In this document: in pieces, positions 39,461-61,800 of the stretch
Layout of the letters: every line of letters starts with the position of its first letter
Numbering within the stretch: position 1 is the first letter of the stretch
Origin: Eledone cirrhosa
Lineage: Eukaryota
DNA: 64,000 nt
Assembly (NCBI GenBank): GCA_964016885.1
Contig: OZ024741.1
Location: 25,048,001-25,112,000 of the forward strand
Reading direction: 5' to 3'
Program-made: the position numbers and the translations under genes
The notes under the pieces: generated by a model
Seen by the model: the letters and a program-made list of their open reading frames with translations, nothing else
What the model was told of the DNA's origin: nothing
The model's database searches: none

Positions 39461-40921
39461 ATTAGAAATATGGTAATGAAAGGGTTTAACAACATATACA
39501 GTATCTTTTATTAGAAATGTGGTAATGAAAGGGTTAAACAACATAGACAGTGTCTTTTATTAGAAATATGTTAATGAAAGGGTTAAACAACATAGACAGT
39601 GTCTCTTATTAGAAATATGATAATGAAAGGGTTAAACAACATAGATAGTGTCTTTCATTAGAAATATGGTAATGAAAGGGTTAAACAACATAGGCAATGT
39701 CTTCTATTAGAAATATGATAATGAAAGGGTTAAACAACATAGACAGTTTCGTTTATTAGAAATATGGTAATGAAAGGGTTAAACAACATAGACAGTGTCT
39801 TTTATTAGAAATATGGTAATGAAAGGGTTAAACAACATAGACAGTATCTTTTATTAGAAATATGGTAATGAAAGGGTTTAACAACATAGACAGTGTCTTT
39901 TATTAGAAATATGGTAATGAAAGGGTTTAACAACATAAACAGTATCTTTTATTAGAAATATGATAATGAAAGGGTTAAACAACATAGGCAGTGTCTTCTA
40001 TTAGAAATATGATAATGAAAGGGTTAAGTAACATAGACAGTGTGTTTTATTAGAAATATGATAATGAAAGGGTTAAACAACATAGACAGTGTCTTTTATT
40101 AGAAATATGGTAATGAAAGTGTTAAACAACATAGACAGTGTCTTTTATTAGAAATGTGGTAATGAAAGTGTTAAACAAAATAGACAGTGTCTTTTATTAG
40201 AAATGTGGTAATGAAAGGGTTAAACAACATAGACAGTGTCTTTTATTAGAAATATGGTAATGAAAGGGTTTAACAACATATACAGTATCTTTTATTAGAA
40301 ATGTGGTAATGAAAGGGTTAAACAACATAGACAGTCTCTTACATTAGAAATATGGTAATGAAAGGCTTAAACAACATAGACAGTGTCTTCTATTAGAAAT
40401 ATGGTAATGCAAGCGTTAAACAACATAGACAGTGTCTTTTATTAGAAATATGGTAATGAAAGGGTTAAACAACATAGACAGTGTCTTTTATTAGAAATAT
40501 GGTAATGAAAGGGTTTAACAACATATACAGTATCTTTTATTAGAAATGTGGTAATGAAAGGGTTAAACAACATAGACAGTGTCTTTTATTAGAAATATGT
40601 TAATGAAAGGGTTAAACAACATAGACAGTGTCTTTTATTAGAAATATGATAATGAAAGGGTTAAACAACATAGATAGTGTCTTTCATTAGAAATATGGTA
40701 ATGAAAGGGTTAAACAACATAGGCAATGTCTTCTATTAGAAATATGATAATGAAAGGGTTAAACAACATAGACAGTTTCGTTTATTAGAAATATGGTAAT
40801 GAAAGGGTTAAACAACATAGACAGTGTCTTTTATTAGAAATATGGTAATGAAAGGGTTAAACAACATAGAAAGTGTCTTTTATTAGAAATATGGTAATGA
40901 AAGGGTTAAACAACATAGATA

Positions 40922-41185
40922 TATTTCTTTTATTTGCCACTAGGGCATCAAAAGTGGGACAAGTACAAAGGGGGGAGTTTACACAAAAAGGCGTCCTCAA
41001 TAAGGAGGAGGCAATAACAAAATATAAAAATAAAATAAGATATAACAAAAAATAAAATTTTTAACAAAATCCTCAATAGAGAGGAGGCGCCTTGGGGGGT
41101 CGCACACACCCCCGAAAAAAGTGTGCAACCCTTCTCCTCAGGAGCACAGAGAAGGGGTGCTCCCTTGGTCTTTCATCTTCCTCAC
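40922..41185 (-). other. 3'UTR of LINE copy 1 (structured and U-rich; AATAAA at 40929-40934; no poly(A) tail)
   Basis: Lies between the ORF2 stop (41186) and the satellite junction. The sense strand ends ...GGCAAATAAAAGAAATA. The same sequence occurs in copy 2 (56765-57027) with a 1-bp deletion. Confidence 0.88.
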
Positions 41186-44100
41186 CTATAGTCTGATGTA
41201 GAGTGAAGGCCCATTCACACGGGCCATTCTCGCCACTTTCACCCATCTTTCATAGAAACGGCTGGGGTGCAGCACCTCTCTCTCCATCCTGATCCTTCTT
41301 CCGAAATGATATCGGAAGAAACGGACCAGTTGTTGGCCAGAGAGAAAGGTGCCCGACCTCAGTCCTTTCAGACGCGTCCACCATACAACCTCTTTCGCCA
41401 TGGCTATTACGCACAGAAACACCGCCTCTGCTTCATCTTTGAAGGGGGGAGGCGGCTTGATCATTACAATAGACTCGGTGGTCAACCGGATCGGTCCCAC
41501 CCTTGACAGCAGTTGTTCGACATAGCCCCACAGATCGGCTACGCCCGAGCAGTGTACTAATGCGTGTGCAACGGTTTCCTCGTCGCACACGCATCTGGGA
41601 CAGATCTTTTTGGCGGGGTCCCTACCCGGGCGCCCGTGTCTGTAGAGCCTTTCTCGAACGGGTAAAGCCCCTCGGTAGCACTGCCAGGCCAGGGACTTCT
41701 GGAAGTTGTCCATAGGTCCCGGGCTGAATGTCCTACCGAACAGGCTGGCCAGTTCGTCCTCCTCCATGTCTAGGGCTTCTCCGAGGGCGTCGTCGCACCT
41801 GCTGCGTACCAGCCCTCTATAGAATGTTGCGGTGGAGTCTCCACTGATAACCGGATCCGCCTGCCAGAGGGCGGTGAGCGCCTGGGCACACTCAGTGTGC
41901 CAGGCGCCCAGTTTTCTCGGTCTTTGCTTGACCCAGGATTGCAGCTCGGTGAGTGAGACGAGTCTGGGAAAGGTTCGTCTCACAAACGAGGCCCACACCG
42001 GTTGTCCGGTGAGGAATACGTAGAGGTGCCGTAGCCTTAATGCGTGTTTACGCATCATTAGCCACGGCATCCCCAGCCCTCCTTTCGAAGGGTGTTGACA
42101 GCAGATGGATCTCCTCACCATAGGAGCCCGCCTCTTCCAAAGGAATTGGAAGAGCGCGCGCTCCATCTTGGTGAGGGTTTCCCTTGGGCAGGGCACTACG
42201 GTCAGGCGGTAGTAGATGACGGACGCTATGTAGGTGTTCGCCACCTCCGCCCGGCCTTTCAGGGATAGTTTGCAACTGGCCCACTTCTGGGTCAGTGCAA
42301 ACACCCTGTTCGTAACCTCCGCCCAGTTTTTCTCCACCTGGAGGTCCGGTCCGAACCAGACCCCGAGCAACTTCACCGGGCCCTCCGTCCAGCGTCCGAC
42401 GACGCTATCGGAGGGCATCGGTCTGCCCCTTCACGTGCCGAGTTGCAAACCGATCGACTTGTCCCGGTTCAGCTTAGCCCCTGTGAACTTTTCGTACTCC
42501 TCCAGTAAGGTGCCGACCGCCTCGATTTCGGAGGCCGTCGACACCATTACTGTCATGTCATCGGCGTAGGCCGACACCGCTTTCCGCAATCCCGGTTCCA
42601 AAGGGATGCCCTGCAACAACTCCAACTTCCGCAGTAGTGGCTCGAGAGTCAACACATACAGAAGGGAGGAGAGAGGGCACCCTTGTCGGATGGACCGCGC
42701 GATTTTGAACGGCTCCGAGAGGTAGCCGTTCACCTTGACCCTAGAGCAGATGCGGCTGCTGTGCATAGCAGTGATCCAGCCCCTGAAAACGGGTCCGAAG
42801 CCTGCCGCCGCTAGCACCGCATCCAGGTAACCATGGTCGACCCTATCGAACGCCTTAGATTGATCCAAGTTGATCAGAGCCCCACCAAAGCCGGGTTCGT
42901 TCCCAACCCTCTCTATGATGTATCGCATGAGGTGGAGGTTGTCATGGATGGACCTGGACGGGATAGCGCATGTCTGCGCATCTCCCACCAGGTTGCCCAC
43001 GACAAGCGCCAACCTCTTTGCTAGCACCTTGGCCAAAATCTGTAACTCTGTATTTAGCAGTGTTATGGGCCTGAAGTTACTTATTTCGTCCCCCTTGTTC
43101 TCGTCCTTCCTCACTAGCGTGACTACGCCCTTGGTCACAGTACAGGGAATTCTCCCGTTCTGTTGCCAGTTGCAGTAGACCGCCTCGAGGAGATCGGGGA
43201 ACAAGTCCGGCATAGCTAGATATAATTCGTAAGGAAGACCATCGAGACCCGGGGATTTGCGTTTGCCGCATTGGCTCAGCACGTCCTCTATCTCAGCGGC
43301 CGAAATCGGCTCTTCGCAGGACTTCGCCTCCCTGTCCGAGAGGCGCGGCAGGCCGTCGAGGTATGGACCGAAGTCCACGTTCCCAACCGGCTCCCCGCCC
43401 CTCCCGAACAGTCGGGCAAAGTGCCTTTGAAAGGCCTCACACATCTGCTTAGGCTCAAGAATCGCCCGTCCATCCAGGTCTCGCAAAGACCGGATGGTGG
43501 ATTTAGTTCCACTGTTGGCCTCTGTCACGCGGGCCCAGCTAACAGCTTTGGTCCCCTCGTTCCCTAGAGCACGTATTTTACTTCGGACAACGCAGCCTTC
43601 GTGCTTCGCGTCGAAAAACTGGCTCAAAGCCGTTCTCGACGCTAGCACTCTGGCCACGTCGCCGCTTCTAATTGCCTCTTCTACTCTATCTATTAGCTCC
43701 CTTTCCTTCCTATTCCTATCCGCAGCTAGAACCTTACTAAATTCTATCGAGACTACTCTAATCTCTCTCTTTAGAGATACCCACCACCTGCTGTTGACGA
43801 TCGCTCCAGTCAACCGTTCCTTAACTAACGTACTAATCCGATTCCTGTAGGCTCTACTTGCCGGCAAGGACAAGTTGAGCTTCCAGTAACCGGGGCCCTG
43901 TCTATGAGTTCTGTCAAGGTTGACCATGCAGGTCACTAATTTGTGGTCTGAATAGCCAACAATGCGCATTTTTGGACAACTTAAAAAGTCCTTATCCTTA
44001 ATTCTAACTAAGAACCTATCTAGGTACGACCTAGATGATCCGCTACGATTTGCCCAAGTCCAGGTTGGCGCAGTCGGAAAATCTAGTCGATATCTATCGG

Positions 44101-44623
44101 CCAGGTCAAATCGACCGATTAACCCTTTGAGGCTATTACACCCCTCTCTATCGGGGCAGGCCCCTACGTAGTCCCAGCGTGCATCTAGGATACCATTCCA
44201 GTCCCCCACTAATAGCAAGGAGCGGGACGTCCCTAGAAAAGTCTCCAGACGATGGAAGAAGTCCGGCCGCATTGACCCGAAAGGGCCGTAGGCGGCTACC
44301 AACCTAAACGCTCCGCCTTTACCACTGCCAAGGTCCAGAACCACTAGTCGACCCTCCGGGTCCAAATGTACCATCTGTGTTGCGAGACCCAGATGTTTTT
44401 GCAGCAGAACGACAACTCCACCCCCACCTCCGGGCTGACAGAGAGATGCGTGCATCTCAAAGTCATCAAAGGTGGGGGCCAGCTGTCGCACGTTGCTGAT
44501 CCGGGCCTCGCAAATAACCATCACATCTATACGTTGTGACCTGAGGTCATTTAGAAGCATTGCTTGCTTCCAAGTTGAGCCCAGGCCACGCGCATTTAAA
44601 CAGCCTACTCTTAGCATAGCCAT
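41186..44623 (-). pseudogene. LINE ORF2 polyprotein (APE endonuclease, reverse transcriptase, C-terminal CCHC), about 1,145 aa, broken by one in-frame TGA at 42431-42433
   Basis: Track ORFs 42431..44647 and 41186..42418 are in the same frame. EN motifs: CLNARGL, LVGDWN, YLDRFL, SDHK. RT motifs: FRPITLLN, LDQSKAFDRV, RQGCPLS, YADD, KLLGV. Zn motif: CPRC...H...C. First ATG at 44623 in an ACCAACATGG context. Copy 2 has TGG at the stop position. Confidence 0.93.
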
Positions 44624-44647
44624 GTTGGTGGTGAAGAGAAAAGGCAC

Positions 44648-46426
44648 TTACCTCTCTGCGTCCCGGGTATCGGGCTGCACAATTTCCATTAGGGTGGGGG
44701 ATGGGTTGTTGGGTGGGGTGGTGGTTTGTGGAAGTGTGGGGGCATCAGTGTGTTGTGTGGTTGGGGAGCTTGGAGTTGTGAGGGTGTTTGGGGAGGGGGT
44801 GGGATAGTTTTTTAGGAGGACGCGGTTAATGGGCCCGACGCAGGGGGGACCCACGTCCTCTTTAAAATTGTTTTTTAAAGTTTTATAGGTGTCCTGTGGG
44901 GCCTTAATCATTTTGAGGTGGGGGAAATCCCCTGCCTGGGTGAAGTTAGGCCCTTGTGTTTTTATTAGATTGTTGTTGTACACAATGTTTAACAGTTTTT
45001 TGTTTCTTGTATTTATGTATGTGTATGCATGTTTTTGTTTTTGTGTGGTGTTTTTTGTTTGCTGTTGTGAGCTCTTTTGTGTTGGTGTCAGTGTTATGTT
45101 TTGGGGAGGGTTTTTTTTCATTTGTGTGTCTGAGGTGTGTTTTCTTTTTTTTCTTTTGATTGTGTGGAAGTGCTCCTCCTCGTCTGACGACGAACTAGGG
45201 TCATCTTCCGCGTTGGAGGGGAGGGGTATATTTTCGGGTTGTGTTTGCGGTACGGGTGTTTTGGAAATTGTTTTTGTTTTTTGAGTGGAGGGGATGGGTT
45301 GGACATTGTTTTGTTTTGGTTTGAGCTGTGGTGGTTGTTTTTGTAGTGGTAGTTGTGGTGATTGTGTTGGTTGTGCAGCTGTTGGTGGTGTAGGCAGGAT
45401 TGGGGTTTTCTTATTAAGTTGGGGACAGACAGCCCTCAGGTGACCTCTGGTTCCGCAGAGGTAACACGAGGGCCGTCTACCCTCAACGGTAATGTTGATG
45501 AAGGTTAGATCATCCAGTATGACGCGTTCAGGGATCTGGGCGATCCTTTCGGGCCTCATTTGAACTACAAGTTCGAGGCTCGTTCCACTGAACGCGTCAC
45601 CCGATGCCTTTCCCATGGACACCAGCATGTCATCCTCCAGGTCCAGAAAACCTGTCAAAACCCACCATATGTCCATAATCGGCAGGATGGTGTGGATTTT
45701 TATTTTTTGTGTTCTTCTACCCATGTACGTAGGGTAGAAGGTGTATGCGGTGGATGTGATTGGTTTGATGGACAGTTTCACTGCTGTGTCCCTGTCCTTC
45801 ATGAGAATGGATAGACTCCCGTAGAGTCTATCCTTCTGAATGAAGGTGATGTCCTTCATGACGTCTTTTAAAACCAGCTCTATCTCGCTCTGTGATGGTT
45901 GAGCTGGTTTTTTACTTTTGTTCGAGATTGTCCTAAACATGACCGTGTTTAGGAGTCTCTGGCTTTTTAGTTCCGGGGGGGAATGGATTGTGAATGAACC
46001 ATTTTCCCCGTACACTATATATTTTTTCGCATCCGCCAGTAGCTCCTTCGCTTTTGTTATATCTACTGGCAGATAGTCGAGGGTTTTCCTTGTCGTCTCG
46101 GCGAAGGAGAAATTTTGTTTGTTTGTGTTGTTGTTGTCGTTGGTGGTGTTGTTGTTATCATTGTTGTTGTTGTCACCGTTATTGGTCTTGTTGTTGTTAT
46201 TGTTATTGGTGTTGTTTTCGTCCGTCGCATTGTTGTTGTTGCTGTTGCCGCTGGTTCTTTGAGTTGTTGCCATGGCAACGTCAAGTTGTCGGTTAACAGG
46301 TGGAGAGAATTCTTCCTCTGGCTGACCTTTCTTCTTGACCTCTGCTACTGTGACAGTGGCAGGGGGAAGCTGTAAGTTCATCTTCCCCTTTCCTCCTTCG
46401 AATTTTGGTGAAGAAGCTTCGGCCAT
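44648..46426 (-). CDS. LINE ORF1 gag-like nucleic-acid-binding protein, 592 aa
   Basis: Uninterrupted ATG-to-TAA ORF upstream of ORF2. It has a CX2CX4HX4C knuckle (CYLCGTRGHLRAVC), a basic NLS-like KRKKRK after an acidic/Ser patch, an Asn-rich N-terminus and a Pro/Gln/Thr-rich C-terminus. Confidence 0.9.
   Translation of the reverse strand: MAEASSPKFEGGKGKMNLQLPPATVTVAEVKKKGQPEEEFSPPVNRQLDVAMATTQRTSGNSNNNNATDENNTNNNNNNKTNNGDNNNNDNNNTTNDNNNTNKQNFSFAETTRKTLDYLPVDITKAKELLADAKKYIVYGENGSFTIHSPPELKSQRLLNTVMFRTISNKSKKPAQPSQSEIELVLKDVMKDITFIQKDRLYGSLSILMKDRDTAVKLSIKPITSTAYTFYPTYMGRRTQKIKIHTILPIMDIWWVLTGFLDLEDDMLVSMGKASGDAFSGTSLELVVQMRPERIAQIPERVILDDLTFINITVEGRRPSCYLCGTRGHLRAVCPQLNKKTPILPTPPTAAQPTQSPQLPLQKQPPQLKPKQNNVQPIPSTQKTKTISKTPVPQTQPENIPLPSNAEDDPSSSSDEEEHFHTIKRKKRKHTSDTQMKKNPPQNITLTPTQKSSQQQTKNTTQKQKHAYTYINTRNKKLLNIVYNNNLIKTQGPNFTQAGDFPHLKMIKAPQDTYKTLKNNFKEDVGPPCVGPINRVLLKNYPTPSPNTLTTPSSPTTQHTDAPTLPQTTTPPNNPSPTLMEIVQPDTRDAER
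46126..46240 (-). repeat. Degenerate (AAC)n trinucleotide tract encoding poly-Asn/Thr in ORF1
   Basis: Plus strand shows TTG/GTT runs; translation NSNNNNATDENNTNNNNNNKTNNGDNNNNDNNNTTNDNNNTN. Confidence 0.85.
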
Positions 46427-46640
46427 TTAAAAAAATATTGACTTTTCAACAAGAAAAAACTTTTTTTTTGTTTAACTATTTCGCCTAAAGGCGTAGAATA
46501 TTTTGAGAGACTGACCAGATCAAAGTTTGACCTGGCAGTCCCTCTACAAAATGGTACAAAAATTAAAGTTATCAGACAAGAATTTCTATAGAAATTTAAA
46601 CAGAACTTACTCAGCAGGTTATACGCGTGTGTCCATCCCA
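46427..46640 (-). promoter_or_regulatory. 5'UTR of LINE copy 1; putative internal promoter region
   Basis: Non-satellite, non-coding sequence upstream of the ORF1 ATG, containing inverted repeats. Promoter function is inferred only from general LINE biology. Confidence 0.55.
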
Positions 46641-46642
46641 GA

Positions 46643-46658
46643 GATAGATAGATAGATA
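46643..46658. repeat. (GATA)4 microsatellite at the 5' junction of LINE copy 1
   Basis: ...CATCCCAGA GATA GATA GATA GATA TACAGTATCTTTT... read directly. Confidence 0.95.
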
Positions 46659-49600
46659 TACAGTATCTTTTATTAGAAATGTGGTAATAAAAGGGTTAAA
46701 CAACATAGACAGTGTCTTTTATTAGAAATATGTTAATGAAAGGGTTAAACAACATAGACAGTGTCTTTTATTAGAAATATGGTAATGAAAGGGTTAAACA
46801 ACTTAGACAGTGTCTTTTATTAAAAATATGGTAATGAAAGGGTTAAACAACATAGATAGTGTCTTTCATTAGAAATATGGTAATGAAAGGGTTAAACAAC
46901 ATAGGCAATGTCTTCTATTAGAAATATGATAATGAAAGGGTTAAATAACATAGACAGTTTCGTTTATTAGAAATATGGTAATGAAAGGGTTAAACAACAT
47001 AGACAGTGTCTTTTATTACAAATATGGTAATGAAAGGGTTGAACAACATAGACAGTGTCTTTTATTAGAAATATGGTAATGAAAGTGTTAAACAACATAG
47101 ACAGTGTCTTTTATTAGAAATATGGTAATGAAAGTGTTAAACAACATAGACAGTGTCTTTTATTAGAAATGTGGTAATGAAAGTGTTAAACAAAATAGAC
47201 AGTGTCTTTTATTAGAAATATGGTAATGAAAGGGTTTAGCAACATATACAGTATCTTTTATTAGAAATGTGGTAATGAAAGGGTTAAACAACATAGACAG
47301 TGTCTTTTATTAGAAATATGTTAATGAAAGGGTTAAACAACATAGACAGTGTCTTTTATTAGAAATATGATAATGAAAGGGTTAAACAACATAGATAGTG
47401 TCTTTCATTAGAAATATGGTAATGAAAGGGTTAAACAACATAGGCAATGTCTTCTATTAGAAATATGTTAATGAAAGGGTTAAACAACATAGACAGTTTC
47501 GTTTATTAGAAATATGGTAATGAAAGGGTTAAACAACATAGACAGTGTCTTTTATTAGAAATAGGGTAATGAAAGGGTTAAACAACATAGTGTCTTCTAT
47601 TAGAAATATGATAATGAAAGGGTTAAACAACATAGACAGTGTCTTTTATTAGAAATATGGTAATGAAAGGGTTAAACAACATAGACAGTGTGTTTTATTA
47701 GAAATATGATAATGAAAGTGTTAAACAACATAGATAGTGTCTTTTATTAGAAATATGGTACTGAAAGGGTTAAACAACATAGATAGTGTCTTTTATTAGA
47801 AATATGGTAATGAAAGGGTTAAACAACATAGACAGTATCTTTTATTAGAAATGTGGTAATAAAAGGGTTAAACAACATAGACAGTGTCTTTTTTTAGAAA
47901 TATGGTAATGAAAGGGTTAAACAACATAGACAGTGTCTTTTATTAGAAATATGGTAATGAAAGGGTTTAACAACATATACAGTATCTTTTATTAGAAATG
48001 TGGTAATGAAAGGGTTAAACAACATAGACAGTGTCTTTTATTAGAAATATGTTAATGAAAGGGTTAAACAACATAGACAGTGTCTTTTATTAGAAATATG
48101 ATAATGAAAGGGTTAAACAACATAGATAGTGTCTTTCATTAGAAATATGGTAATGAAAGGGTTAAACAACATAGGCAATGTCTTCTATTAGAAATATGAT
48201 AATGAAAGGGTTAAATAACATAGACAGTTTCGTTTATTAGAAATATGGTAATGAAAGGGTTAAACAACATAGACAGTGTTTTTTATTAGAAATATGGTAA
48301 TGAAAGGGTTGAAAAACATAGACAGTGTCTTTTATTAGAAATATGGTAATGAAAGGGTTAAACAACATAGACAGTGTCTTTTATTAGAAATATGGTAATG
48401 AAAGTGTTAAACAACATAGACAGTGTCTTTTATTAGAAATGTGGTAATGAAAGTGTTAAACAAAATAGACAGTGTCTTTTATTAGAAATGTGGTAATGAA
48501 AGGGTTAAACAACATAGACAGTCTCTTACATTAGAAATATGGTAATGAAAGGGTTAAACAACATAGACAGTGTCTTTTATTAGAAATATGGTAATGCAAG
48601 CGTTAAACAACATAGACAGTGTCTTTTATTAGAAATATGGTAATGAAAGGGTTAAACAACATAGACAGTGTCTTTTATTAGAAATATGGTAATGAAAGGG
48701 TTTAACAACATATACAGTATCTTTTATTAGAAATGTGGTAATGAAAGGGTTAAACAACATAGACAGTGTCTTTTATTAGAAATATGTTAATGAAAGGTTT
48801 AAACAACATAGACAGTGTCTTTTATTAGAAATATGATAATGAAAGGGTTAAACAACATAGATAGTGTCTTTCATTAGAAATATGGTAATGAAAGGGTTAA
48901 ACAACATAGACAGTGTTTTTTATTAGAAATATGGTAATGAAAGTGTTAAACAACATAGACAGTATCTTTTATTAGAAATATGATAATGAAAGGGTTAAGT
49001 AACATAGACAGTGTGTTTTATTAGAAATATGGTAATGAAAGGGTTAAACAACATAGACAGTCTCTTACATTAGAAATATGGTAATGAAAGGGTTAAACAA
49101 CATAGACAGTATCTTTTATTAGAAATGTGCTAATGAAAGGGTTAAACAACATAGACAGTGTCTTTTTTTAGAAATATGGTAATGAAAGGATTAAACAACA
49201 TAGACAGTGTCTTTTATTAGAAATATGGTAATGAAAGGGTTTAACAACATAAACAGTGTGTATTATTAGAAATGTGGTAATGAAAGGGTTAAACAACTTA
49301 GACAGTGTCTTTTATTAGAAATATAGTAATGAAAGGGTTAAACAACTTAGACAGTGTCTTTTATTAGAAATATGGTAATGAAAGGCTTACACAACATAGA
49401 CAGTGTCTTTTATTAGAAATATGGTAATGAAAGGGTTAAACAACATAGACAGTGTCTTTTATTAGAAATATGGTAATGAAAGGTTTAAACAACATAGACA
49501 GTGTCTTTTATTAGAAATATGATAATGAAAGGGTTAAATAACATAGACAGTTTCGTTTATTAGAAATATGGTAATGAAAGGGTTAAACAAAATAGACAGT

Positions 49601-52600
49601 GTCTTTTATTAGAAATGTGGTAATGAAAGGGTTAAACAACATAGACAGTCTCTTACATTAGAAATATGGTAATGAAAGGGTTAAACAACATAGACAGTGT
49701 CTTTTATTAGAAATATGGTAATGCAAGCGTTAAACAACATAGACAGTGTCTTTTATTAGAAATATGGTAATGAAAGGGTTAAACAAGATAGACAGTGTCT
49801 TTTATTAGAAATATGGTAATGAAAGGGTTTAACAACATATACAGTATCTTTTATTAGAAATGTGGTAATGAAAGGGTTAAACAACATAGACAGTGTCTTT
49901 TATTAGAAATATGTTAATGAAATGGTTAAACAACATAGACAGTGTCTTTTATTAGAAATATGATAATGAAAGGGTTAAACAACATAGATAGTGTCTTTCA
50001 TTAGAAATATGGTAATGAAAGGGTTAAACAACATAGGCAATGTCTTCTATTAGAAATATGATAATGAAAGGGTTAAACAACATAGACAGTTTCGTTTATT
50101 ACAAATATGGTAATGAAAGGGTTAAACAACATAGACAGTGTCTTTTATTAGAAATATGGTAATGAAAGTGTTAAACAACATAGACAGTATCTTTTATTAG
50201 ATATGTGGTAATGAAAGGGTTAAACAACATAGACAGTGTCTTTTTTTAGAAATATGGTAATGAAAGGATTAAACAACATAGACAGTGTCTTTTATTAGAA
50301 ATATGGTAATGAAAGGGTTTAACAACATAAACAGTATCTTTTATTAGAAATATGATAATGAAAGGGTTAAGTAACATAGACAGTGTGTTTTATTAGAAAT
50401 ATGGTAATGAAAGGGTTAAACAACATAGACAGTCTCTTACATTAGAAATATGGTAATGAAAGGGTTAAACAACATAGACAGTATCTTTTATTAGAAATGT
50501 GGTAATGAAAGGGTTAAACAACATAGACAGTGTCTTTTATTAGAAATATGGTAATGAAAGGGTTAAACAACTTAGACAGTGTCTTTTATTAGAAATATGG
50601 TAATGAAAGGGTTACACAACATAGACAGTGTCTTTTATTAGAAATATGGTAATGAAAGGGTTACACAACATAGACAGTGTCTTTTATTAGAAATATGGTA
50701 ATGAAAGGGTTAAACAACATAGACAGTGTCTTTTATTAGAAATATAGTAATGAAAGGGTTAAACAACATAGACAGTGTCTTTTATTAGAAATATGATAAT
50801 GAAAGGGTTAAACAACATAGACAGTGTCTTTTATTAGAAATATGGTAATGAAAGGGTTAAACAACATAGATAGTGTTTTTTATTAGAAATATAGTAATGA
50901 AAGGGTTAAACAACATAGACAGTGTCTTTTATTAGAAATATGGTAATGAAAGGGTTAAACAACATAGACAGTGTCTTTTATTAGAAATATGGTAATGAAA
51001 GGGTTAAACAACATAGACAGTTTCTTTTATTAGAAATATGGTAATGAAAGGGTTAAACAACATAGACAGTGTCTTTTATTAGAAATATGATAATGAAAGG
51101 GTTAAACAACATAGACAGTGTCTTTTATTAGAAATATGGTAATGAAAGGGTTAAACAACATAGACAGTGTCTTTTATTAGAAATATGGTAATGAAAGGGT
51201 TAAACAACATAGACAGTGTCTTTTATTAGAAATATGGTAATGAAAGGGTTAAACAACATAGACAGTGTCTTTTATTAGAAATATGGTAATGAAAGGGTTA
51301 AACAACATAGACAGTGTCTTTTATTAGAAATATGGTAATGAAAGGGTTAAACAACATAGACAGTGTCTTTTATTAGAAATATGGTAATGAAAGGGTTAAA
51401 CAACATAGACAGTGTCTTTTATTAGAAATAGGGTAATGAAAGGGTTAAACAACATAGACAGGGTTTTTTATTAGAAATATGATAATGAAAGGGTTAAACA
51501 ACATAGACAGTGTCTTTTATTAGAAATATGGTAATGAAAGGATTAAACAACATAGACAGTGTCTTTTATTAGAAATATGGTAATGAAAGGGTTAAACAAC
51601 ATAGACAGTGTCTTTTATTAGAAATATGGTAATGAAAGAGTTAAACAACATAGACAGTGTCTTTTATTAGAAATATGGTAATGAAAGGGTTAAACAACAT
51701 AGATAGTGTCTTTTATTAGAAATATGGTAATGAAAGGGTTAAACAACATAGACAGTGTCTTTTATTAGAAATATGGTAATGAGAGGTTTAAACAACATAG
51801 ACAGTGTCTTTTATTAGAAATATGGTAATGAAAGGGTTAAACAACATAGACAGTGTCTTTTATTAGAAATATGGTAATGAAAGGGTTAAACAACATAGAC
51901 AGTGTCTTTTATTAGAAATATGATAATGAAAGGGTTAAACAACATAGACAGTGTCTTTTATTAGAAATATGGTAATGAAAGGGTTAAACAACATAGATAG
52001 TGTTTTTTATTAGAAATATAGTAATGAAAGGGTTAAACAACATAGACAGTGTCTTTTATTAGAAATATGGTAATGAAAGGGTTAAACAACATAGACAGTG
52101 TCTTTTATTTGAAATATGGTAATGAAAGGGTTAAACAACATAGACAGTGTCTTTTATTAGAAATATGGTAATGAAAGGGTTAAACAACATAGACAGTGTC
52201 TTTTATTAGAAATATGATAATGAAAGGGTTAAACAACATAGACAGTGTCTTTTATTAGAAATATGGTAATGAAAGGGTTAAACAACATAGACAGTGTCTT
52301 TTATTAGAAATATGATAATGAAAGGGTTAAACAACATAGACAGTGTCTTTTATTAGAAATATGGTAATGAAAGGGTTAAACAACATAGACAGTGTCTTTT
52401 ATTAGAAATATGGTAATGAAAGGGTTAAACAACATAGACAGTGTCTTTTATTAGAAATATGGTAATGAAAGGGTTAAACAACATACTGTCTTTTATTAGA
52501 AATATGATAATGAAAGGGTTAAACAACATAGACAGTGTCTTTTATTAGAAATATGGTAATGAAAGGGTTAAACAACATAGACAGTGTCTTTTATTAGAAA

Positions 52601-55600
52601 TATGGTAATGAAAGGGTTAAACAACATAGACAGTGTCTTTTATTAGAAATATGGTAATGAAAGGGTTAAACAACATAGACAGTGTCTTTTATTAGAAATA
52701 TGATAATGAAAGGGTTAAACAACATAGACAGTGTCTTTTATTAGAAATATGGTAATGAAAGGGTTAAACAACATAGACAGTGTCTTTTATTAGAAATATG
52801 GTAATGAAAGGGTTAAACAACATAGACAGTGTCTTTTATTAGAAATATGGTAATGAAAGGGTTAAACAACATAGACAGTGTCTTTTATTAGAAATATGGT
52901 AATGAAAGGGTTAAACAACATACTGTCTTTTATTAGAAATATGATAATGAAAGGATTACACAACATAGACAGTGTCTTTTATTAGATATAGGGTAATGAA
53001 AGTGTTAAACAACATAGACAGTGTTTTTTATTAGAAATATGGTAATGAAAGGGTTAAACAACATAGACAGTGTCTTTTATTAGAAATATGGTAATGAAAG
53101 GATTACACAACATATACAGTATCTTTTATTAGAAATATGGTAATGAAAGGGTTAAACAACATAGACAGTGTCTTTTATTAGAAATATGGTAATGAAAGTG
53201 TTAAACAACATAGACAGTGTGTTCTATTAGAAATATGGTAATGAAAGGGTTAAACAACATAGACAGTGTCTTTTATTAGATATAGGGTAATGAAAGTGTT
53301 AAACAACATAGACAGTGTCTTTTATTAGAAATATGGTAATGAAAGTGTTAAACAACATAGGCAGTGTCTTTTATTAGAAATATGATAATGAAAGGGTTAA
53401 ACAACATAGACAGTATCTTTTATTAGAAATATGGTAATGAAAGGGTTAAACAACATAGACAGTGTCTTTTATTAGAAATATGGTAATGAAAGGGTTAAAC
53501 AACATAGATAGTGTCTTTTATTAGAAATATGGTAATGAAAGGGTTAAACAACATAGATAGTGTCTTTTATTAGAAATATGGTAATGAAAGGGTTAAACAA
53601 CATAGACAGTGTCTTTTATTAGAAACATGGTAATGAAAGGGTTAAACAACATAGATAGTGTCTTTTATTAGAAATATAGTAATGAAAGGGTTAAACAACA
53701 CAGACAGTGTCTTTTATTAGAAATATGGTAATGAAAGGGTTAAACAACATAGATAGTGTCTTTTATTAGAAATATGGTAATGAAAGGGTTAAACAACATA
53801 GACAGGGTTTTTTATTAGAAATATGATAATGAAAGGGTTAAACAACATAGACAGTGTCTTTTATTAGAAATATGGTAATGAAAGGATTAAACAACATAGA
53901 CAGTGTCTTTTATTAGAAATATGGTAATGAAAGGGTTAAACAACATAGACAGTGTCTTTTATTAGAAATATGGTAATGAAAGGGTTAAACAACATAGATA
54001 GTGTCTTTTATTAGAAATAGGGTAATGAAAGGGTTAAACAACATAGTGTCTTCTATTAGAAATATGATAATGAAAGGGTTAAACAACATAGACAGTGTCA
54101 TTTATTAGAAATATGATAATGAAAGGGTTAAACAACATAGACAGTGTCTTTTATTAGAAATAGGGTAATGAAAGGGCTAAACAACATAGACAGGGTTTTT
54201 TATTAGAAATATGATAATGAAAGGGTTAAACAACATAGACAGTGTCTTTTATTAGAAATATGGTAATGAAAGGGTTAAACAACATAGACAGGGTTTTTTA
54301 TTAGAAATATGGTAATGAAAGGGTTAAACAACATAGACAGTGTCTTTTATTAGATATAGGGTAATGAAAGTGTTAAACAACATAGACAGTGTCTTTTATT
54401 AGAAATATGGTAATGAAAGTGTTAAACAACATAGGCAGTGTCTTTTATTAGAAATATGATAATGAAAGGGTTAAACAACATAGACAGTATCTTTTATTAG
54501 AAATATGGTAATGAAAGGGTTAAACAACATAGACAGTGTCTTTTATTAGAAATATGGTAATGAAAGGGTTAAACAACATAGATAGTGTCTTTTATTAGAA
54601 ATATGGTAATGAAAGGGTTAAACAACATAGACAGTGTCTTTTATTAGAAATATGGTAATGAAAGGGTTAAACAACATAGATAGTGTCTTTTATTAGAAAT
54701 ATAGTAATGAAAGGGTTAAACAACACAGACAGTGTCTTTTATTAGAAATATGGTAATGAAAGGGTTAAACAACATAGATAGTGTCTTTTATTAGAAATAT
54801 GGTAATGAAAGGGTTAAACAACATAGACAGGGTTTTTTATTAGAAATATGATAATGAAAGGGTTAAACAACATAGACAGTGTCTTTTATTAGAAATATGG
54901 TAATGAAAGGATTAAACAACATAGACAGTGTCTTTTATTAGAAATATGGTAATGAAAGGGTTAAACAACATAGACAGTGTCTTTTATTACAAATATGGTA
55001 ATGAAAGGGTTAAACAACATAGATAGTGTCTTTTATTAGAAATAGGGTAATGAAAGGGTTAAACAACATAGTGTCTTCTATTAGAAATATGATAATGAAA
55101 GGGTTAAACAACATAGACAGTGTCATTTATTAGAAATATGATAATGAAAGGGTTAAACAACATAGACAGTGTCTTTTATTAGAAATAGGGTAATGAAAGG
55201 GCTAAACAACATAGACAGGGTTTTTTATTAGAAATATGATAATGAAAGGGTTAAACAACATAGACAGTGTCTTTTATTAGAAATATGGTAATGAAAGGGT
55301 TAAACAACATAGACAGGGTTTTTTATTAGAAATATGGTAATGAAAGGGTTAAACAACAAATATGGTAATGAAAAGTTTAAACAACATAGACAGTGTCTTT
55401 TATTAGAAATATGATAATGAAAGGGTTAAACAACATAGACAGTGTGTTTTATTAGATATGTGGTAATGAAAGGGTTAAACAACATAGACAGTGTGTTTTA
55501 TTAAAAATATGGTAATGAAAGGGTTAAACAACATAGACAGTATCTTTTATTAGAAATATGGTAATGAAAGGGTTCAACAACATAGACAGTGTCTTTTATT

Positions 55601-56764
55601 AGAAATATGGTAATGAAAGGGTTAAACAACATAGACAGTGTCTTTTATTAGAAATATGGTAATGAAAGTGTTAAACAACATAGACAGTGTCTTTTATTAG
55701 AAATATGATAATGAAAGGGTTAAACAACATAGACAGTGTCTTTTATTAGAAATATGGTAATGAAAGGGTTAAACAACATAGATAGTATCTTTTATTAGAA
55801 ATATGGTAATGAAAGGGTTAAACAACATAGACAGTATCTTTTATTAGAAATATGGTAATGAAAGGGTTAAACAACATAGACAGTGTCTTTTATTAGAAAT
55901 ATGGTAATGAAAGGGTTAAACAACATAGACAGTATCTTTTATTAGAAATATGGTAATGAAAGGGTTAAACAACATAGACAGTGTCTTTTATTAGAAATAT
56001 GGTAATGAAAGGATTAAACAACATAGACAGTGTCTTTTATTAGAAATATGGTAATGAAAGGGTTAAACAACATAGACAGTGTCTTTTATTAGAAATATGG
56101 TAATGAAAGAGTTAAACAACATAGACAGTGTCTTTTATTAGAAATATGGTAATGAAAGGGTTAAACAACATAGACAGTGTCTTTTATTAGAAATATGGTA
56201 ATGAAAGGGTTAAACAACATAGACAGTGTCTTTTATTAGAAATATGGTAATGAAAGGGTTAAACAACATAGACAGTGTCTTTTATTAGAAATATGGTAAT
56301 GAAAGGGTTAAACAACATAGATAGTGTCTTTTATTAGAAATATGATAATGAAAGGATTACACAACATAGACAGTGTCTTTTATTAGATATAGGGTAATGA
56401 AAGTGTTAAACAACATAGACAGTGTTTTTTATTAGAAATATGGTAATGAAAGGGTTAAACAACATAGACAGTGTCTTTTATTAGAAATATGGTAATGAAA
56501 GGATTACACAACATAGACAGTATCTTTTATTAGAAATATGGTAATGAAAATGTTAAACAACATAGACAGTGTCTTTTATTAGAAATATGGTAATGAAAGT
56601 GTTAAACAACATAGGCAGTGTCTTTTATTAGAAATATGATAATGAAAGTGTTAAACAACATAGACAGTATCTTTTATTAGAAATATGGTAATGAAAGGGT
56701 TAAACAACATAGACAGTGTCTTTTATTAGAAATATGGTAATGAAAGGTTTAAACAACATAGATA
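46659..56764. repeat. 49-bp satellite array, middle block (about 206 monomers)
   Basis: Same monomer and orientation as the left block. Includes a 1,025-bp local duplication (CACAGAC at 53701 and 54726) and 45-bp and 28-bp deletion monomers. Confidence 0.99.
56753..56764 (+). repeat. Left target-site duplication of LINE copy 2 (ACAACATAGATA)
   Basis: Identical 12-mer at 58853-58864. Removing the element plus one copy restores an intact 49-bp monomer. Confidence 0.85.
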
Positions 56765-58852
56765 TATTTCTTTTATTTGCCACTAGGGCATCAAAAGTGG
56801 GACAAGTACAAAGGGGGGAGTTTACACAAAAAGCGTCCTCAATAAGGAGGAGGCAATAACAAAATATAAAAATAAAATAAGATATAACAAAAAATAAAAT
56901 TTTTAACAAAATCCTCAATAGAGAGGAGGCGCCTTGGGGGGTCGCACACACCCCCGAAAAAAGTGTGCAACCCTTCTCCTCAGGAGCACAGAGAAGGGGT
57001 GCTCCCTTGGTCTTTCATCTTCCTCACCTATAGTCTGATGTAGAGTGAAGGCCCATTCACACGGGCCATTCTCGCCACTTTCACCCATCTTTCATAGAAA
57101 CGGCTGGGGTGCAGCACCTCTCTCTCCATCCTGATCCTTCTTCCGAAATGATATCGGAAGAAACGGACCAGTTGTTGGCCAGAGAGAAAGGTGCCCGACC
57201 TCAGTCCTTTCAGACGCGTCCACCATACAACCTCTTTCGCCATGGCTATTACGCACAGAAACACCGCCTCTGCTTCATCTTTGAAGGGGGGAGGCGGCTT
57301 GATCATTACAATAGACTCGGTGGTCAACCGGATCGGTCCCACCCTTGACAGCAGTTGTTCGACATAGCCCCACAGATCGGCTACGCCCGAGCAGTGTACT
57401 AATGCGTGTGCAACGGTTTCCTCGTCGCACACGCATCTGGGACAGATCTTTTTGGCGGGGTCCCTACCCGGGCGCCCGTGTCTGTAGAGCCTTTCTCGAA
57501 CGGGTAAAGCCCCTCGGTAGCACTGCCAGGCCAGGGACTTCTGGAAGTTGTCCATAGGTCCCGGGCTGAATGTCCTACCGAACAGGCTGGCCAGTTCGTC
57601 CTCCTCCATGTCTAGGGCTTCTCCGAGGGCGTCGTCGCACCTGCTGCGTACCAGCCCTCTATAGAATGTTGCGGTGGAGTCTCCACTGATAACCGGATCC
57701 GCCTGCCAGAGGGCGGTGAGCGCCTGGGCACACTCAGTGTGCCAGGCGCCCAGTTTTCTCGGTCTTTGCTTGACCCAGGATTGCAGCTCGGTGAGTGAGA
57801 CGAGTCTGGGAAAGGTTCGTCTCACAAACGAGGCCCACACCGTTTGTCCGGTGAGGAATACGTAGAGGTGCCGTAGCCTTAATGCGTGTTTACGCATCAT
57901 TAGCCACGGCATCCCCAGCCCTCCTTTCGAAGGGTGTTGACAGCAGATGGATCTCCTCACCATAGGAGCCCGCCTCTTCCAAAGGAATTGGAAGAGCGCG
58001 CGCTCCATCTTGGTGAGGGTTTCCCTTGGGCAGGGCACTACGGTCAGGCGGTAGTAGATGACGGACGCTATATAGGTGTTCACCACCTCCGCCCGACCTT
58101 TCAGGGATAGTTTGCAACTGGCCCACTTCTGGGTCAGTGCAAACACCCTGTTCGTAACCTCCGCCCAGTTTTTCTCCACCTGGAGGTCCGGTCCGAACCA
58201 GACCCCGAGCAACTTCACCGGGCCCTCCGTCCAGCGTCCGACGACGCTATCGGAGGGCATCGGTCTGCCCCTCCACGTGCCGAGTTGCAAACCGATCGAC
58301 TTGTCCCGGTTCAGCTTAGCCCCTGTGAACTTTTCGTACTCCTCCAGTAAGGTGCCGACCGCCTCGATTTCGGAGGCCGTCGACACCATTACTGTCACGT
58401 CATCGGCGTAGGCCGACACCGCTTTCCGCAATCCCGGTTCCAAAGGGATGCCCTGCAACAACTCCAACTTCCGCAGTAGTGGCTCGAGAGTCAACACATA
58501 CAGAAGGGAGGAGAGAGGGCACCCTTGTAGGATGGACCGCGCGATTTTGAACGGCTCCGAGAGGTAGCCGTTCACCTTGACCCTAGAGCAGATGCGGCTG
58601 CTGTGCAAAGCAGTGATCCAGCCCCTGAAAACGTGTCCGAAGCCTGCCGCCGCTAGCACCGCATCCAGGTAACCATGGTCGACCCTATCGAACGCCTTAG
58701 ATTGATCCAAGTTGATCAGAGCCCCACCAAAGCCGGGTTCGTTCCCAACCCTCTCTATGATGTATCGCATGAGGTGGAGGTTGTCATGGATGGACCTGGA
58801 CGGGATAGCGCATGTCTGCGCATCTCCCACCAGGTTGCCCACGACAAGCGCC
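56765..58852 (-). mobile_element. 5'-truncated copy (2,088 bp) of the same Tx1-like LINE, copy 2
   Basis: Colinear with 40922-43010. By eye, about nine substitutions and one 1-bp indel. Same 3' end as copy 1; truncated inside the RT domain; flanked by a TSD. Confidence 0.96.
57028..58852 (-). pseudogene. Truncated ORF2 fragment (C-terminal part of RT plus CCHC domain); frame open
   Basis: The 626-aa track ORF, whose first 19 or so residues are satellite-derived. Lacks the endonuclease and N-terminal RT subdomains; RQGCPLS is altered to LQGCPLS. Confidence 0.9.
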
Positions 58853-58864
58853 ACAACATAGATA
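58853..58864 (+). repeat. Right target-site duplication of LINE copy 2 (ACAACATAGATA)
   Basis: The first A is also the next element base (copy 1 reads GACAAGCGCC-A-ACC), so the TSD is either 12 bp or 11 bp plus 1-bp microhomology. Confidence 0.85.
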
Positions 58865-61800
58865 GTGTCTTTTATTAGAAATATGGTAATGAAAGGGTTA
58901 AACAACATAGATAGTGTCTTTTATTAGAAATATGGTAATGAAAGGGTTAAACAACATAGACAGTGTCTTTTATTAGAAATATGGTAATGAAAGGGTTAAA
59001 CAACATAGATAGTGTCTTTTATTAGAAATATAGTAATGAAAGGGTTAAACAACATAGACAGTGTCTTTTATTAGAAATATGGTAATGAAAGGGTTAAACA
59101 ACATAGATAGTGTCTTTTATTAGAAATATGGTAATGAAAGGGTTAAACAACATACACAGTGTCTTTTATTAGAAATATGGTAATGAAAGGGTTAAACAAC
59201 ATAGACAGTGTCTTTTATTAGAAATAGGGTAATGAAAGGGTTAAACAACATAGACAGTGTCTTTTATTAGAAATATGGTAATGAAAGGGTTAAACAACAT
59301 AGTCAGTGTCTTTTATTAGAAATATGATAATGAAAGGGTTAAACAACATAGACAGTGTCTTTTATTAGAAATAGGGTAATGAAAGGGTTAAACAACATAG
59401 ACAGGGTTTTTTATTAGAAATATGATAATGAAAGGGTTAAACAACATAGACAGTGTCTTTTATTAGAAATATGGTAATGAAAGGATTAAACAACATAGAC
59501 AGTGTCTTTTATTAGAAATATGGTAATGAAAGGGTTAAACAACATAGACAGTGTCTTTTATTAGAAATATGATAATGAAAGGGTTAAACAACATAGACAG
59601 TGTCTTTTATTAGAAATATGGTAATGAAAGGGTTAAACAACATAGATAGTGTCTTTTATTAGAAATATGGTAATGAAAGGGTTAAACAACATAGACAGTG
59701 TCTTTTATTAGAAATATGATAATAAAAGGGTTAAACAACATAGACAGTGTCTTTTATTAGAAATAGGGTAATGAAAGGGTTAAACAACATAGTGTCTTCT
59801 ATTAGAAATATGATAATGAAAGGGTTAAACAACATAGACAGTGTCATTTATTAGAAATATGATAATGAAAGGGTTAAACAACATAGACAGTATCTTTTAT
59901 TAGAAATAGGGTAATGAAAGGGCTAAACAACATAGACAGGGTTTTTTATTAGATTATGATAATGAAAGGGTTAAACAACATAGACAGTGTGTTTTATTAG
60001 AAATATGGTAATGAAAGGGTTAAACAACATAGACAGTATCTTTTATTAGAAATATGGTAATGAAAGGGTTCAACAACATAGACAGTGTCTTTTATTAGAA
60101 ATATGGTAATGAAAGGGTTAAACAACATAGACAGGTTTTTTTATTAGAAATATGGTAATGAAAGGGTTAAACAACAAATATGGTAATGAAAAGTTTAAAC
60201 AACATAGACAGTGTCTTTTATTAGAAATATGATAATGAAAGGGTTAAACAACATAGACAGTGTCTGTTATTAGAAATATGGTAATGAAAGGGTTAAACAA
60301 CATAGACAGTGTGTTTTATTAGATATGTGGTAATGAAAGGGTTAAACAACATAGACAGTGTGTTTTATTAGAAATATGGTAATGAAAGGGTTAAACAACA
60401 TAGACAGTATCTTTTATTAGAAATATGGTAATGAAAGGGTTCAACAACATAGACAGTGTCTTTTATTAGAAATATGGTAATGAAAGGGTTAAACAACATA
60501 GACAGTGTCTTTTATTAGAAATATGGTAATGAAAGTGTTAAACAACATAGACAGTGTCTTTTATTAGAAATATGATAATGAAAGGGTTAAACAACATAGA
60601 CAGTGTCTTTTATTAGAAATATGGTAATGAAAGGGTTAAACAACATAGATAGTATCTTTTATTAGAAATATGGTAATGAAAGGGTTAAACAACATAGACA
60701 GTATCTTTTATTAGAAATATGGTAATGAAAGGGTTAAACAACATAGACAGTGTCTTTTATTAGAAATATGGTAATGAAAGGGTTAAACAACATAGACAGT
60801 ATCTTTTATTAGAAATATGGTAATGAAAGGGTTAAACAACATAGACAGTTTCTTTTATTAGAAATATGGTAATGAAAGGGTTAAACAACATAGATAGTAT
60901 CTTTTATTAGAAATATGGTAATGAAAGGGTTAAACAACATAGATAGTGTCTTTTATTAGAAATATGGTAATGAAAGGGTTAAACAACATAGACAGTGTCT
61001 TTTATTAGAAATATGGTAATGAAAGGGTTAAACAACATAGATAGTGTCTTTTATTAGAAATATAGTAATGAAAGGGTTAAACAACATAGACAGTGTCTTT
61101 TATTAGAAATATGGTAATGAAAGGGTTAAACAACATAGACAGTGTCTTTTATTAGAAATATGGTAATGAAAGGGTTAAACAACATAGACAGTGTCTTTTA
61201 TTAGAAATAGGATAATGAAAGGGTTAAACAACATAGACAGTGTCTTTTATTAGAAATATGGTAATGAAAGGGTTAAACAACATAGACAGTGTCTTTTATT
61301 AGAAATATGATAATGAAAGGGTTAAACAACATAGACAGTGTCTTTTATTAGAAATAGGGTAATGAAAGGGTTAAACAACATAGACAGGGTTTTTTATTAG
61401 AAATATGATAATGAAAGTGTTAAACAACATAGACAGTGTCTTTTATTAGAAATATGGTAATGAAAGGATTAAACAACATAGACAGTGTCTTTTATTAGAA
61501 ATATGGTAATGAAAGGGTTAAACAACATAGACAGTGTCTTTTATTAGAAATATGGTAATGAAAGGGTTAAACAACATAGACAGTGTCTTTCATTAGAAAT
61601 ATGGTAATGAAAGGGTTAAACAACATAGATAGTGTCTTTTATTAGAAATATGGTAATGAAAGGGTTAAACAACATAGACAGTGTCTTTTATTAGAAATAT
61701 GATAATAAAAGGGTTAAACAACATAGACAGTGTCTTTTATTAGAAATATGATAATAAAAGGGTTAAACAACATAGACAGTGTCTTTTATCAGAAATAGGG

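Follow-up and report, generated by a model that had tools for sequence, protein, structure and literature searches.

Why should a retrotransposon sit twice at the same base of a tandem repeat? The question is raised by a stretch of Eledone cirrhosa DNA of 64,000 nt (GenBank assembly GCA_964016885.1, contig OZ024741.1, positions 25,048,001 to 25,112,000, forward strand; here called the window and numbered from its first letter), which is a single array of a 49-bp satellite with two interruptions, both of them minus-strand copies of one long interspersed nuclear element (LINE). The sequence-only reading of this locus had proposed a Tx1-like family that resides in the satellite and uses it as a safe harbor. 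Our results lead to another answer. The satellite-specific safe-harbor element is not real, and, with a probability that we put at about 0.85, the two copies are independent insertions of a young L1/Tx1-type LINE that is found genome-wide, has most of its copies at (GATA)n or (TA)n microsatellites, and landed in the array via a microsatellite-like minority form of the monomer, ATAGATAG.

Insertions at a single base of the satellite

The array and the two copies, with the target site duplication (TSD) of the second, are laid out as follows.

1 to 64000, plus strand: 49-bp satellite array, 28% GC, belonging to a larger array of about 373 kb (C2, about 24,827,700 to 25,200,940)
40908 to 40921, plus strand: left target arm of copy 1, AAACAACATAGATA, in the minority GATA form of the monomer
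40922 to 46641, minus strand: copy 1, full length
56753 to 56764, plus strand: left copy of the TSD of copy 2, ACAACATAGATA
56765 to 58852, minus strand: copy 2, about 2.09 kb, 5' truncated within the reverse transcriptase (RT) region
58853 to 58864, plus strand: right copy of the TSD of copy 2, continuing as GTGTCTTTTATTAG (GATA-variant monomer)

Both 3' junctions read AAACAACATAGATA followed directly by TATTTCTTTTATTTGCC, at 40921/40922 for copy 1 and at 56764/56765 for copy 2, and both copies lie on the minus strand, which confirms the identical base and orientation described earlier for these two L1/Tx1-type copies. The whole array, of which 253 kb were read directly and the remainder was covered by pattern matching only, holds four copies of the family, and all four share the one base and the one orientation. 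Of the other two, one is 1.7 kb long and has a TSD of 15 to 16 nt, and one is of full length and lies 62,207 bp upstream of copy 1. All four cluster inside 100 kb of the 373 kb.

The base used lies in a minority form of the monomer. The majority form carries GACA, while the GATA variant ATAGATAG (CATAGATAG) accounts for 258 of 4,690 monomers (5.5%) and for 5 to 14% of the monomers near each of the four copies. All four targets were GATA-variant monomers. Two copies show this in their own TSDs, and for the other two it is seen in the empty-site paralogues that best match the left flank (5 of 5 for one, 4 of 5 for the other), those of copy 1 lying within the window.

7174 to 7222, plus strand: empty-site paralogue for copy 1, in which 531 nt match the left flank exactly and are followed by a GATA-variant monomer
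15797 to 15845: second empty-site GATA-variant monomer for copy 1

The chance product for four of four copies falling in a variant of this local frequency is about 6e-5, so that insertion at one base and always in the minority variant is not chance. No family junction was found in the majority GACA form, and no junction in the opposite orientation was found over the 31 of the 49 phases covered with one anchor.

A single insertion that was later spread by unequal crossing-over or conversion, or duplicated by the assembler, would also place copies at one base, and we regard this as most unlikely. For the two window copies, the TSD and the sequence data argue against it: copy 2 is 99.5% identical to copy 1, but it has a TSD of 11 to 12 nt and private changes of its own, and the two differ from one another at 6 bases over 1,690 nt versus 3 between each of them and a microsatellite-resident copy elsewhere. 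The same holds for the array as a whole, where pairwise differences among the four copies are 3 to 6 bases over these 1,690 nt and each is as close or closer (2 to 3 bases) to a microsatellite-resident copy elsewhere, and where the array copies do not form a clade. The two truncated copies break off at different points, and each has its own TSD. Derivation of copy 2 from copy 1 by a deletion, the DNA-level duplication against which the sequence-only reading had weighed its own claim, is ruled out by the TSD, the private changes and the closer relatives outside the array, and its proposal of separate retrotransposition events stands.

The evidence for copying between insertions comes from copy 1 and the upstream full-length copy, which share an identical tract and a private base.

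45711 to 49385, no strand assigned: tract identical to that of the upstream full-length copy, made up of 930 nt from the 5' end of the element plus 2,745 nt of satellite (counterpart at C2:25,031,504-25,035,178)

The tract starts inside the LINE, and neither of the two copies has a TSD. However, there are 14 differences between their bodies, 5 of them at positions that also vary among 11 further full-length copies, and the empty sites matched by the two left flanks are not the same. A simple parent-daughter relationship with 5' transduction of the 2.7 kb of satellite is rejected by the 14 body differences versus none in the shared tract. The shared tract is likely the result of gene conversion or unequal exchange, or else an assembly artifact, and we read the pair as two insertions whose 5' end was later copied between them, or as such an artifact; this would account for the missing TSD of copy 1, a detail that the sequence-only reading had omitted. 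The number of independent insertion events in the array is three or four.

The array itself is not uniform. A recurring 77-bp unit (a monomer plus a 28-bp partial monomer) at 55281-55435, 60099-60253, 62033-62187 and 63527-63681 is the sign of a higher-order repeat on the right side of the array, and the left part has different, irregular higher-order blocks. The C2 region around the array is rich in several satellites; to its left (C2:24.0-24.86 Mb, L084-L096) lie other, unrelated tandem repeats, with units at 24.68-24.72 and 24.0-24.5 Mb. The same satellite forms a second, inverted array that starts at about C2:25,472,600, roughly 270 kb beyond that of the window. Genome-wide, the exact GATA-variant monomer has 301 forward and 183 reverse matches, the latter at least partly in the inverted array, and in this array (at most 183 GATA-variant sites) we found no family copy at the corresponding site.

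The family inserts at GATA and TA microsatellites

The family was counted by exact matches to a 28-nt pattern from its 3' end, a count that stands apart from non-exact copies. There were 1,930 matches in the genome, 4 of them (0.2%) in the satellite of the window. Junctions were examined on chromosome C1, in 98 of the 100 places that head the list of matches. Ahead of the terminal dinucleotide of the element, the bases were GATA in 80 of the 98 and TATA in 15, and the core ATAGATA or ATATATA was present in 85. The left flanks consisted of (GATA)3 or longer in 54 copies, (TA)4 or longer in 8, mixed microsatellite in 12, short or other sequence in 21 and a related 49-bp satellite in 3, so that a microsatellite formed the left flank in 74 of 98; it formed the right flank in 68 of the 93 copies whose 5' end was in hand. 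With a slightly shorter element anchor, GATAGATA directly preceded a TA/TG/AA/AG-type tail in 1,225 copies genome-wide, and only 8 copies had GATA preceded by a base other than A. A poly(A) tail was absent from all junctions inspected. The earlier claim that insertion is directed by sequence is borne out by this pattern, into which the array junction ATAGATA^G fits.

By the working rule of Kojima (PMC4494074), an element is target specific when the target occurs in more than 20% of its flanks. The GATA/TA microsatellite lies well within this rule, and the 49-bp satellite falls outside it, with the 4 of 1,930 copies noted above and with 3 of 98 in the related satellite at another phase. The related satellite, which lacks ATAGATA, holds four copies at AGAAATA(T/G), and this use of another phase shows that the target is a microsatellite-like motif and not a satellite phase. 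These copies are at L031-L033, L039 and L097-L101 (C1:108.72-108.82 Mb; C4:77.63 Mb); two of them, 13,985 bp apart and with both junctions in common, look like a DNA-level duplicate.

A family whose endonuclease recognizes the 49-bp monomer and for which the array is a safe harbor is thus highly improbable, the least probable of the explanations that we considered. Its case consists of the one base and orientation in four of four copies, a density in the array about 16-fold over uniform with a high per-site rate, and a precedent, since the legend of Fig. 3 in PMC4494074 marks satellite targets for some Tx1 families. These points are outweighed by the share of 0.2%, with 8 copies in the wider 49-bp family versus 1.5 to 2.8 expected, by the majority monomer never being used, by the inverted array being empty (P of about 0.09 at the rate of the window's array) and by the array copies not forming a lineage, with copy 1 bearing at its 5' end an (AGAT)4 of the kind seen on microsatellite-resident copies. 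As the main target of the family, the satellite is already refuted by the genome-wide counts and the junction flanks. The collection of flanks that the sequence-only reading had proposed as a check places 95 of the 98 sampled copies outside any 49-bp satellite, a result that this reading had itself named as contrary to it. What survives of its claimed preference for the satellite is a per-site use far above that of the same 10-mer elsewhere, which is taken up below.

Among the 98 copies, the terminal dinucleotide was TA in 39, TG in 31, AG in 24 and other in 4. On a weakly resolved tree of 85 copies it required 12 changes versus 41 when shuffled, and this clustering by subfamily indicates that the dinucleotide belongs to the element, in keeping with the 3' boundary originally drawn. 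The TA subfamily is the youngest, and all four array copies belong to it, likely because turnover of the array removes older inserts. Of 93 copies with both ends, 20 were near full length. ORF2 (the second open reading frame) was uninterrupted in 9 of 13 full-length copies, and both ORFs were uninterrupted in 4 of 13, copy 1 not being among them; the family therefore looks recently active. The median pairwise difference was 0.7% over 300 nt (66 sequences; a crude estimate).

At least five sister Tx1-like 3' ends also adjoin GATA tracts (L012, L063, L070, L072, L108, L120 and others), one of them with 5,028 exact matches genome-wide. Head-to-tail stacking is common, with another Tx1 3' end within about 135 nt in 26 of the 93 copies. 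Internal deletions or rearrangements were seen in L064, L112-L114 and L151, L064 lacking about 1 kb at a short repeat, between positions 891 and 1897 of the element. Four sequencing runs were aligned on the 3' end, and the reads displayed held no informative junction ends.

Cut sites and a possible route of insertion

TSDs were sought in 57 of the 58 copies in which ATAGATA is preceded by a non-microsatellite base and in 4 of the 8 copies with a base other than A before GATA, which gave 62 rows, one a duplicate, with two loci holding two copies each. Some TSD could be called in 44 distinct rows, and 18 passed a filter for clean TSDs that required an end at GATA, a start at -5 to +2 of the 5' end and a length of 9 to 22 nt. 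The clean TSDs were 9 to 18 nt long (median, 15), or 7 to 16 nt (median, 13) with microhomology removed, and the next base of the target was G in 16 of 18, mostly as GATAG. Eight rows were dropped where the match ended 1 to 10 nt short of the junction in tandem contexts; here, the RNA may have supplied repeat bases, or the units may vary.

The junction of the family is thus ATAGATA^G. The sequence-only reading had placed the first nick at this same junction, and the junction agrees with the family; if the RNA carries the complementary repeat, however, any position in the 7-nt homology could be that of the nick, and the exact base is then not fixed by sequence. The second nick, proposed at 11 to 12 nt from the first, matches the TSD of copy 2 but does not generalize: the family ranges from 9 to 18 nt, another array copy has 15 to 16 nt, and there is no fixed stagger.

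These results suggest a route in which the apurinic/apyrimidinic endonuclease (APE) of the element would nick the GATA strand within ATAGATA or immediately behind it. The 3' end released in this way would anneal to UAUC repeats on the RNA, acquired by read-through from the source locus, and would prime reverse transcription right at the unique end of the element, after which the second strand would be cut about 9 to 18 nt upstream. At its 5' junction, copy 1 carries a short non-satellite repeat, beyond which a different monomer variant follows.

46642 to 46657, plus strand: (AGAT)4 at the 5' junction of copy 1, non-satellite

Most full-length copies of the family end in ...CCATCCCAG and then AGAT repeats, including one copy in a satellite, which fits a source inside a GATA tract; (AGAT)4 was likely carried on the RNA from such a source copy.

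Use of the array exceeds what the motif predicts

Several observations weigh against a microsatellite-targeting family as the full account. The 10-mer AACATAGATA occurs 24,770 times in the genome and is filled by the family four times, always in the array of the window, that is, 4 of about 305 sites (4 of about 490 with the inverted array) versus 0 of about 24,000 elsewhere. With these approximate denominators, the Fisher P value is 2e-8, or 9e-5 without the two window copies. At uniform density, 0.24 copies would be expected in the array, compared to the four seen. The GATA motif alone under-predicts the use of the array, and the per-site excess is unexplained. The junction data also have their bounds, as the 98 copies are one chromosome's first listed places and exact 28-mers, the clean TSDs were selected from the 62 rows to end at GATA, and the nick position and the read-through in the proposed route are putative. 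Per-site use is about 0.8 to 1.3% in the satellite versus at most about 0.5% in microsatellite tracts (1,225 copies over 250,441 in-tract positions).

One explanation that would supplement microsatellite targeting is regional: the motif is ordinary, but the array is unusually open or tolerant, through germ line chromatin, possibly centromere-like, and the absence of selection, or the excess is partly one of ascertainment. We hold this to be possible, though somewhat less than an even chance. It agrees with the clustering of the four copies inside 100 kb while the neighboring inverted array is empty, with the choice of the window for its two copies and with the report, in bioRxiv 10.64898/2026.09.17.752431, that young transposons widely invade satellite arrays. 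However, the excess persists on exclusion of the two window copies (P of 0.017 by density and, as above, 9e-5 per site).

The second supplement lies in the sequence. The GATA-variant monomer resembles the 3' junction of the element itself, with ATAGATA and then TCTTTTATT one base out of register, and it could be a preferred secondary target in which the 3' end of the RNA pairs with the DNA past the priming site and aids the choice of site. The match is 9 of 9 with a register shift of at most 2 bases (P of 0.0002 in an anchored shuffle, post hoc), and besides the per-site excess, this idea would cover the stacking in 26 of 93 copies and the exact reinsertion at older Tx1 junctions that offer only a short GATA arm (the L023 stack, L216 and L227). 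We nevertheless judge it unlikely. The evidence comes from one sequence context, which is inseparable from a regional effect; about 80% of the monomers have TCTTTTATT and are unused; a TCTTTTATT-like context occurs in none of the 18 clean targets; and the spacers in the stacks are broad (14 to 130 nt) and without a peak. In addition, the sister family with 5,028 copies has 8 contiguous in-register tail bases that match the monomer, and none of its copies is in the array, although it looks older, with a median pairwise difference of 5.7% versus 0.7% (300 nt; 18 versus 66 sequences; a crude comparison). The stronger form of the idea, in which the monomer is a decoy of the junction and the 3' end of the RNA pairs on both sides of the nick, so that an APE-type LINE would select its target with the assistance of RNA, is slightly less probable again. 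With only one array, a regional effect and a sequence effect are inseparable.

We also considered whether the satellite was derived from the 3' end of the LINE. Over window positions 40908-40960, 27 of 45 columns align, including TCTTTTATT, which is not significant (shuffle P, 0.05 to 0.1 for the LINE family and 0.2 to 0.4 for the sister families), and this origin was rejected.

Classification and relation to known systems

Copy 1 has the organization of a two-ORF LINE.

40922 to 41185, minus strand: 3' untranslated region, ending AATAAA-AGAAA-TA, without a poly(A) tail
41186 to 44623, minus strand: ORF2 with APE endonuclease, RT and C-terminal CCHC/zf-RVT; one premature TGA at 42431-42433
44648 to 46426, minus strand: ORF1, 592 amino acids, with a single CX2CX4HX4C zinc knuckle at amino acid 321
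46427 to 46641, minus strand: 5' untranslated region, reaching the full-length 5' end of the family (plus strand ...CCATCCCAG)

In ORF2, Pfam detected Exo_endo_phos, RVT_1 and zf-RVT, and the catalytic motifs are present. The best match to a solved structure was human L1 ORF2p (PDB 8sxt; E value of 1e-37, residues 8 to 723), compared to 1e-18 for R2, in a comparison of L1 versus R2 that did not include RTE, CR1 or Jockey references. The N-terminal APE, the RT, the C-terminal zinc-binding motif and the greater similarity to L1 than to R2 are those of the L1/Tx1 group, and the precise 3' end, the variable 5' truncation and the TSDs of 9 to 18 nt in 18 of 62 rows are those of target-primed reverse transcription. 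ORF1 has the zinc knuckle, which scored weakly as zf-CCHC in Pfam (E value of 0.05) and which look-alikes of ORF1 at 0.92 also carry; there was no Pfam match to Transposase_22. A homologue search with ORF1 found none, and a single-sequence fold model was unusable for an RNA recognition motif (RRM) (pLDDT, 33). The homologue searches, whose coverage excluded Repbase, returned no named Tx1, the nearest named homologue being from Argonauta hians (63%). The label "Tx1" as used here is one of architecture as read from the sequence and not of a tree. In PMC5203782, RRM/zf-CCHC ORF1s of nonmammalian animals are called consistent with Tx1.

Microsatellite-targeting Tx1 families are already known. PMC4494074 describes Kibi at (TC)n, Koshi at (TTC)n and crocodilian families at (TTCC)n/(TTTC)n, and PMC3812793 lists ACAY, AC, TC, TTC and TAA as targets and calls the mechanism poorly understood. 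The present family is like Kibi, Koshi and the crocodilian elements in being an APE-type, two-ORF LINE of the L1/Tx1 group with a strong microsatellite preference and a fixed register and orientation. It differs in its octopod-like host and in its unit, which is GATA, together with TA and mixed tracts, and not (TC)n or (TTC)n. With the satellite-target Tx1 families of the PMC4494074 legend it shares a fixed position of insertion in a satellite, but in the present case the satellite accounts for 0.2% of the copies and is used only in a microsatellite-like minority variant. In PMC7265360, annealing of RNA to the target is proposed for SART1Bm and R1Bm, whose target-like 3' bases are thought to pair with the nicked target; a similar step is conceivable in the present family, while SART1Bm and R1Bm are R1-clade elements with telomeric or ribosomal DNA targets, and SART1Bm has a poly(A) tail, which the present family lacks. 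Human L1 ORF2p shares the APE and RT with their conserved catalytic motifs, and L1 has similar TSD lengths and frequent 5' truncation. In contrast, L1 has a weak TTAAAA preference and poly(A) priming (PMC3812793), and the present family has an ORF1 with a CCHC knuckle and no Transposase_22 match.

In Octopus vulgaris, recently active L1-Tx1 families have been counted (PMC13282606, in passages that do not give targets), and the part of PMC11203168 that we saw has nothing on targets. Our literature search found no GATA-targeting Tx1 within a scope that excluded Repbase Reports, most subscription papers and the supplements of PMC4494074 on Tx1 targets.

Implications

In conclusion, this locus holds a young microsatellite-targeting L1/Tx1-type LINE that was caught four times in a satellite variant mimicking the GATA unit, and the GATA-variant monomer is likely used as a mimic of a GATA microsatellite. 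With this family, (GATA)n/(TA)n joins the microsatellite targets already known for Tx1-type LINEs. The satellite is also a natural single-base test, as GATA and GACA monomers lie adjacent to each other in the same chromatin and four of four insertions are in the rare GATA form, and this contrast within one array defines the minimal target, ATAGATA^G, more closely than pure microsatellites allow. RNA-assisted target selection, if true, would account both for the high per-site use of the satellite and for the head-to-tail stacking at older junctions. The per-site excess and the built-in GATA/GACA contrast make the system worth testing, and pairs of GATA and GACA oligonucleotides would bear on whether the endonuclease or RNA-DNA pairing sets the microsatellite specificity.

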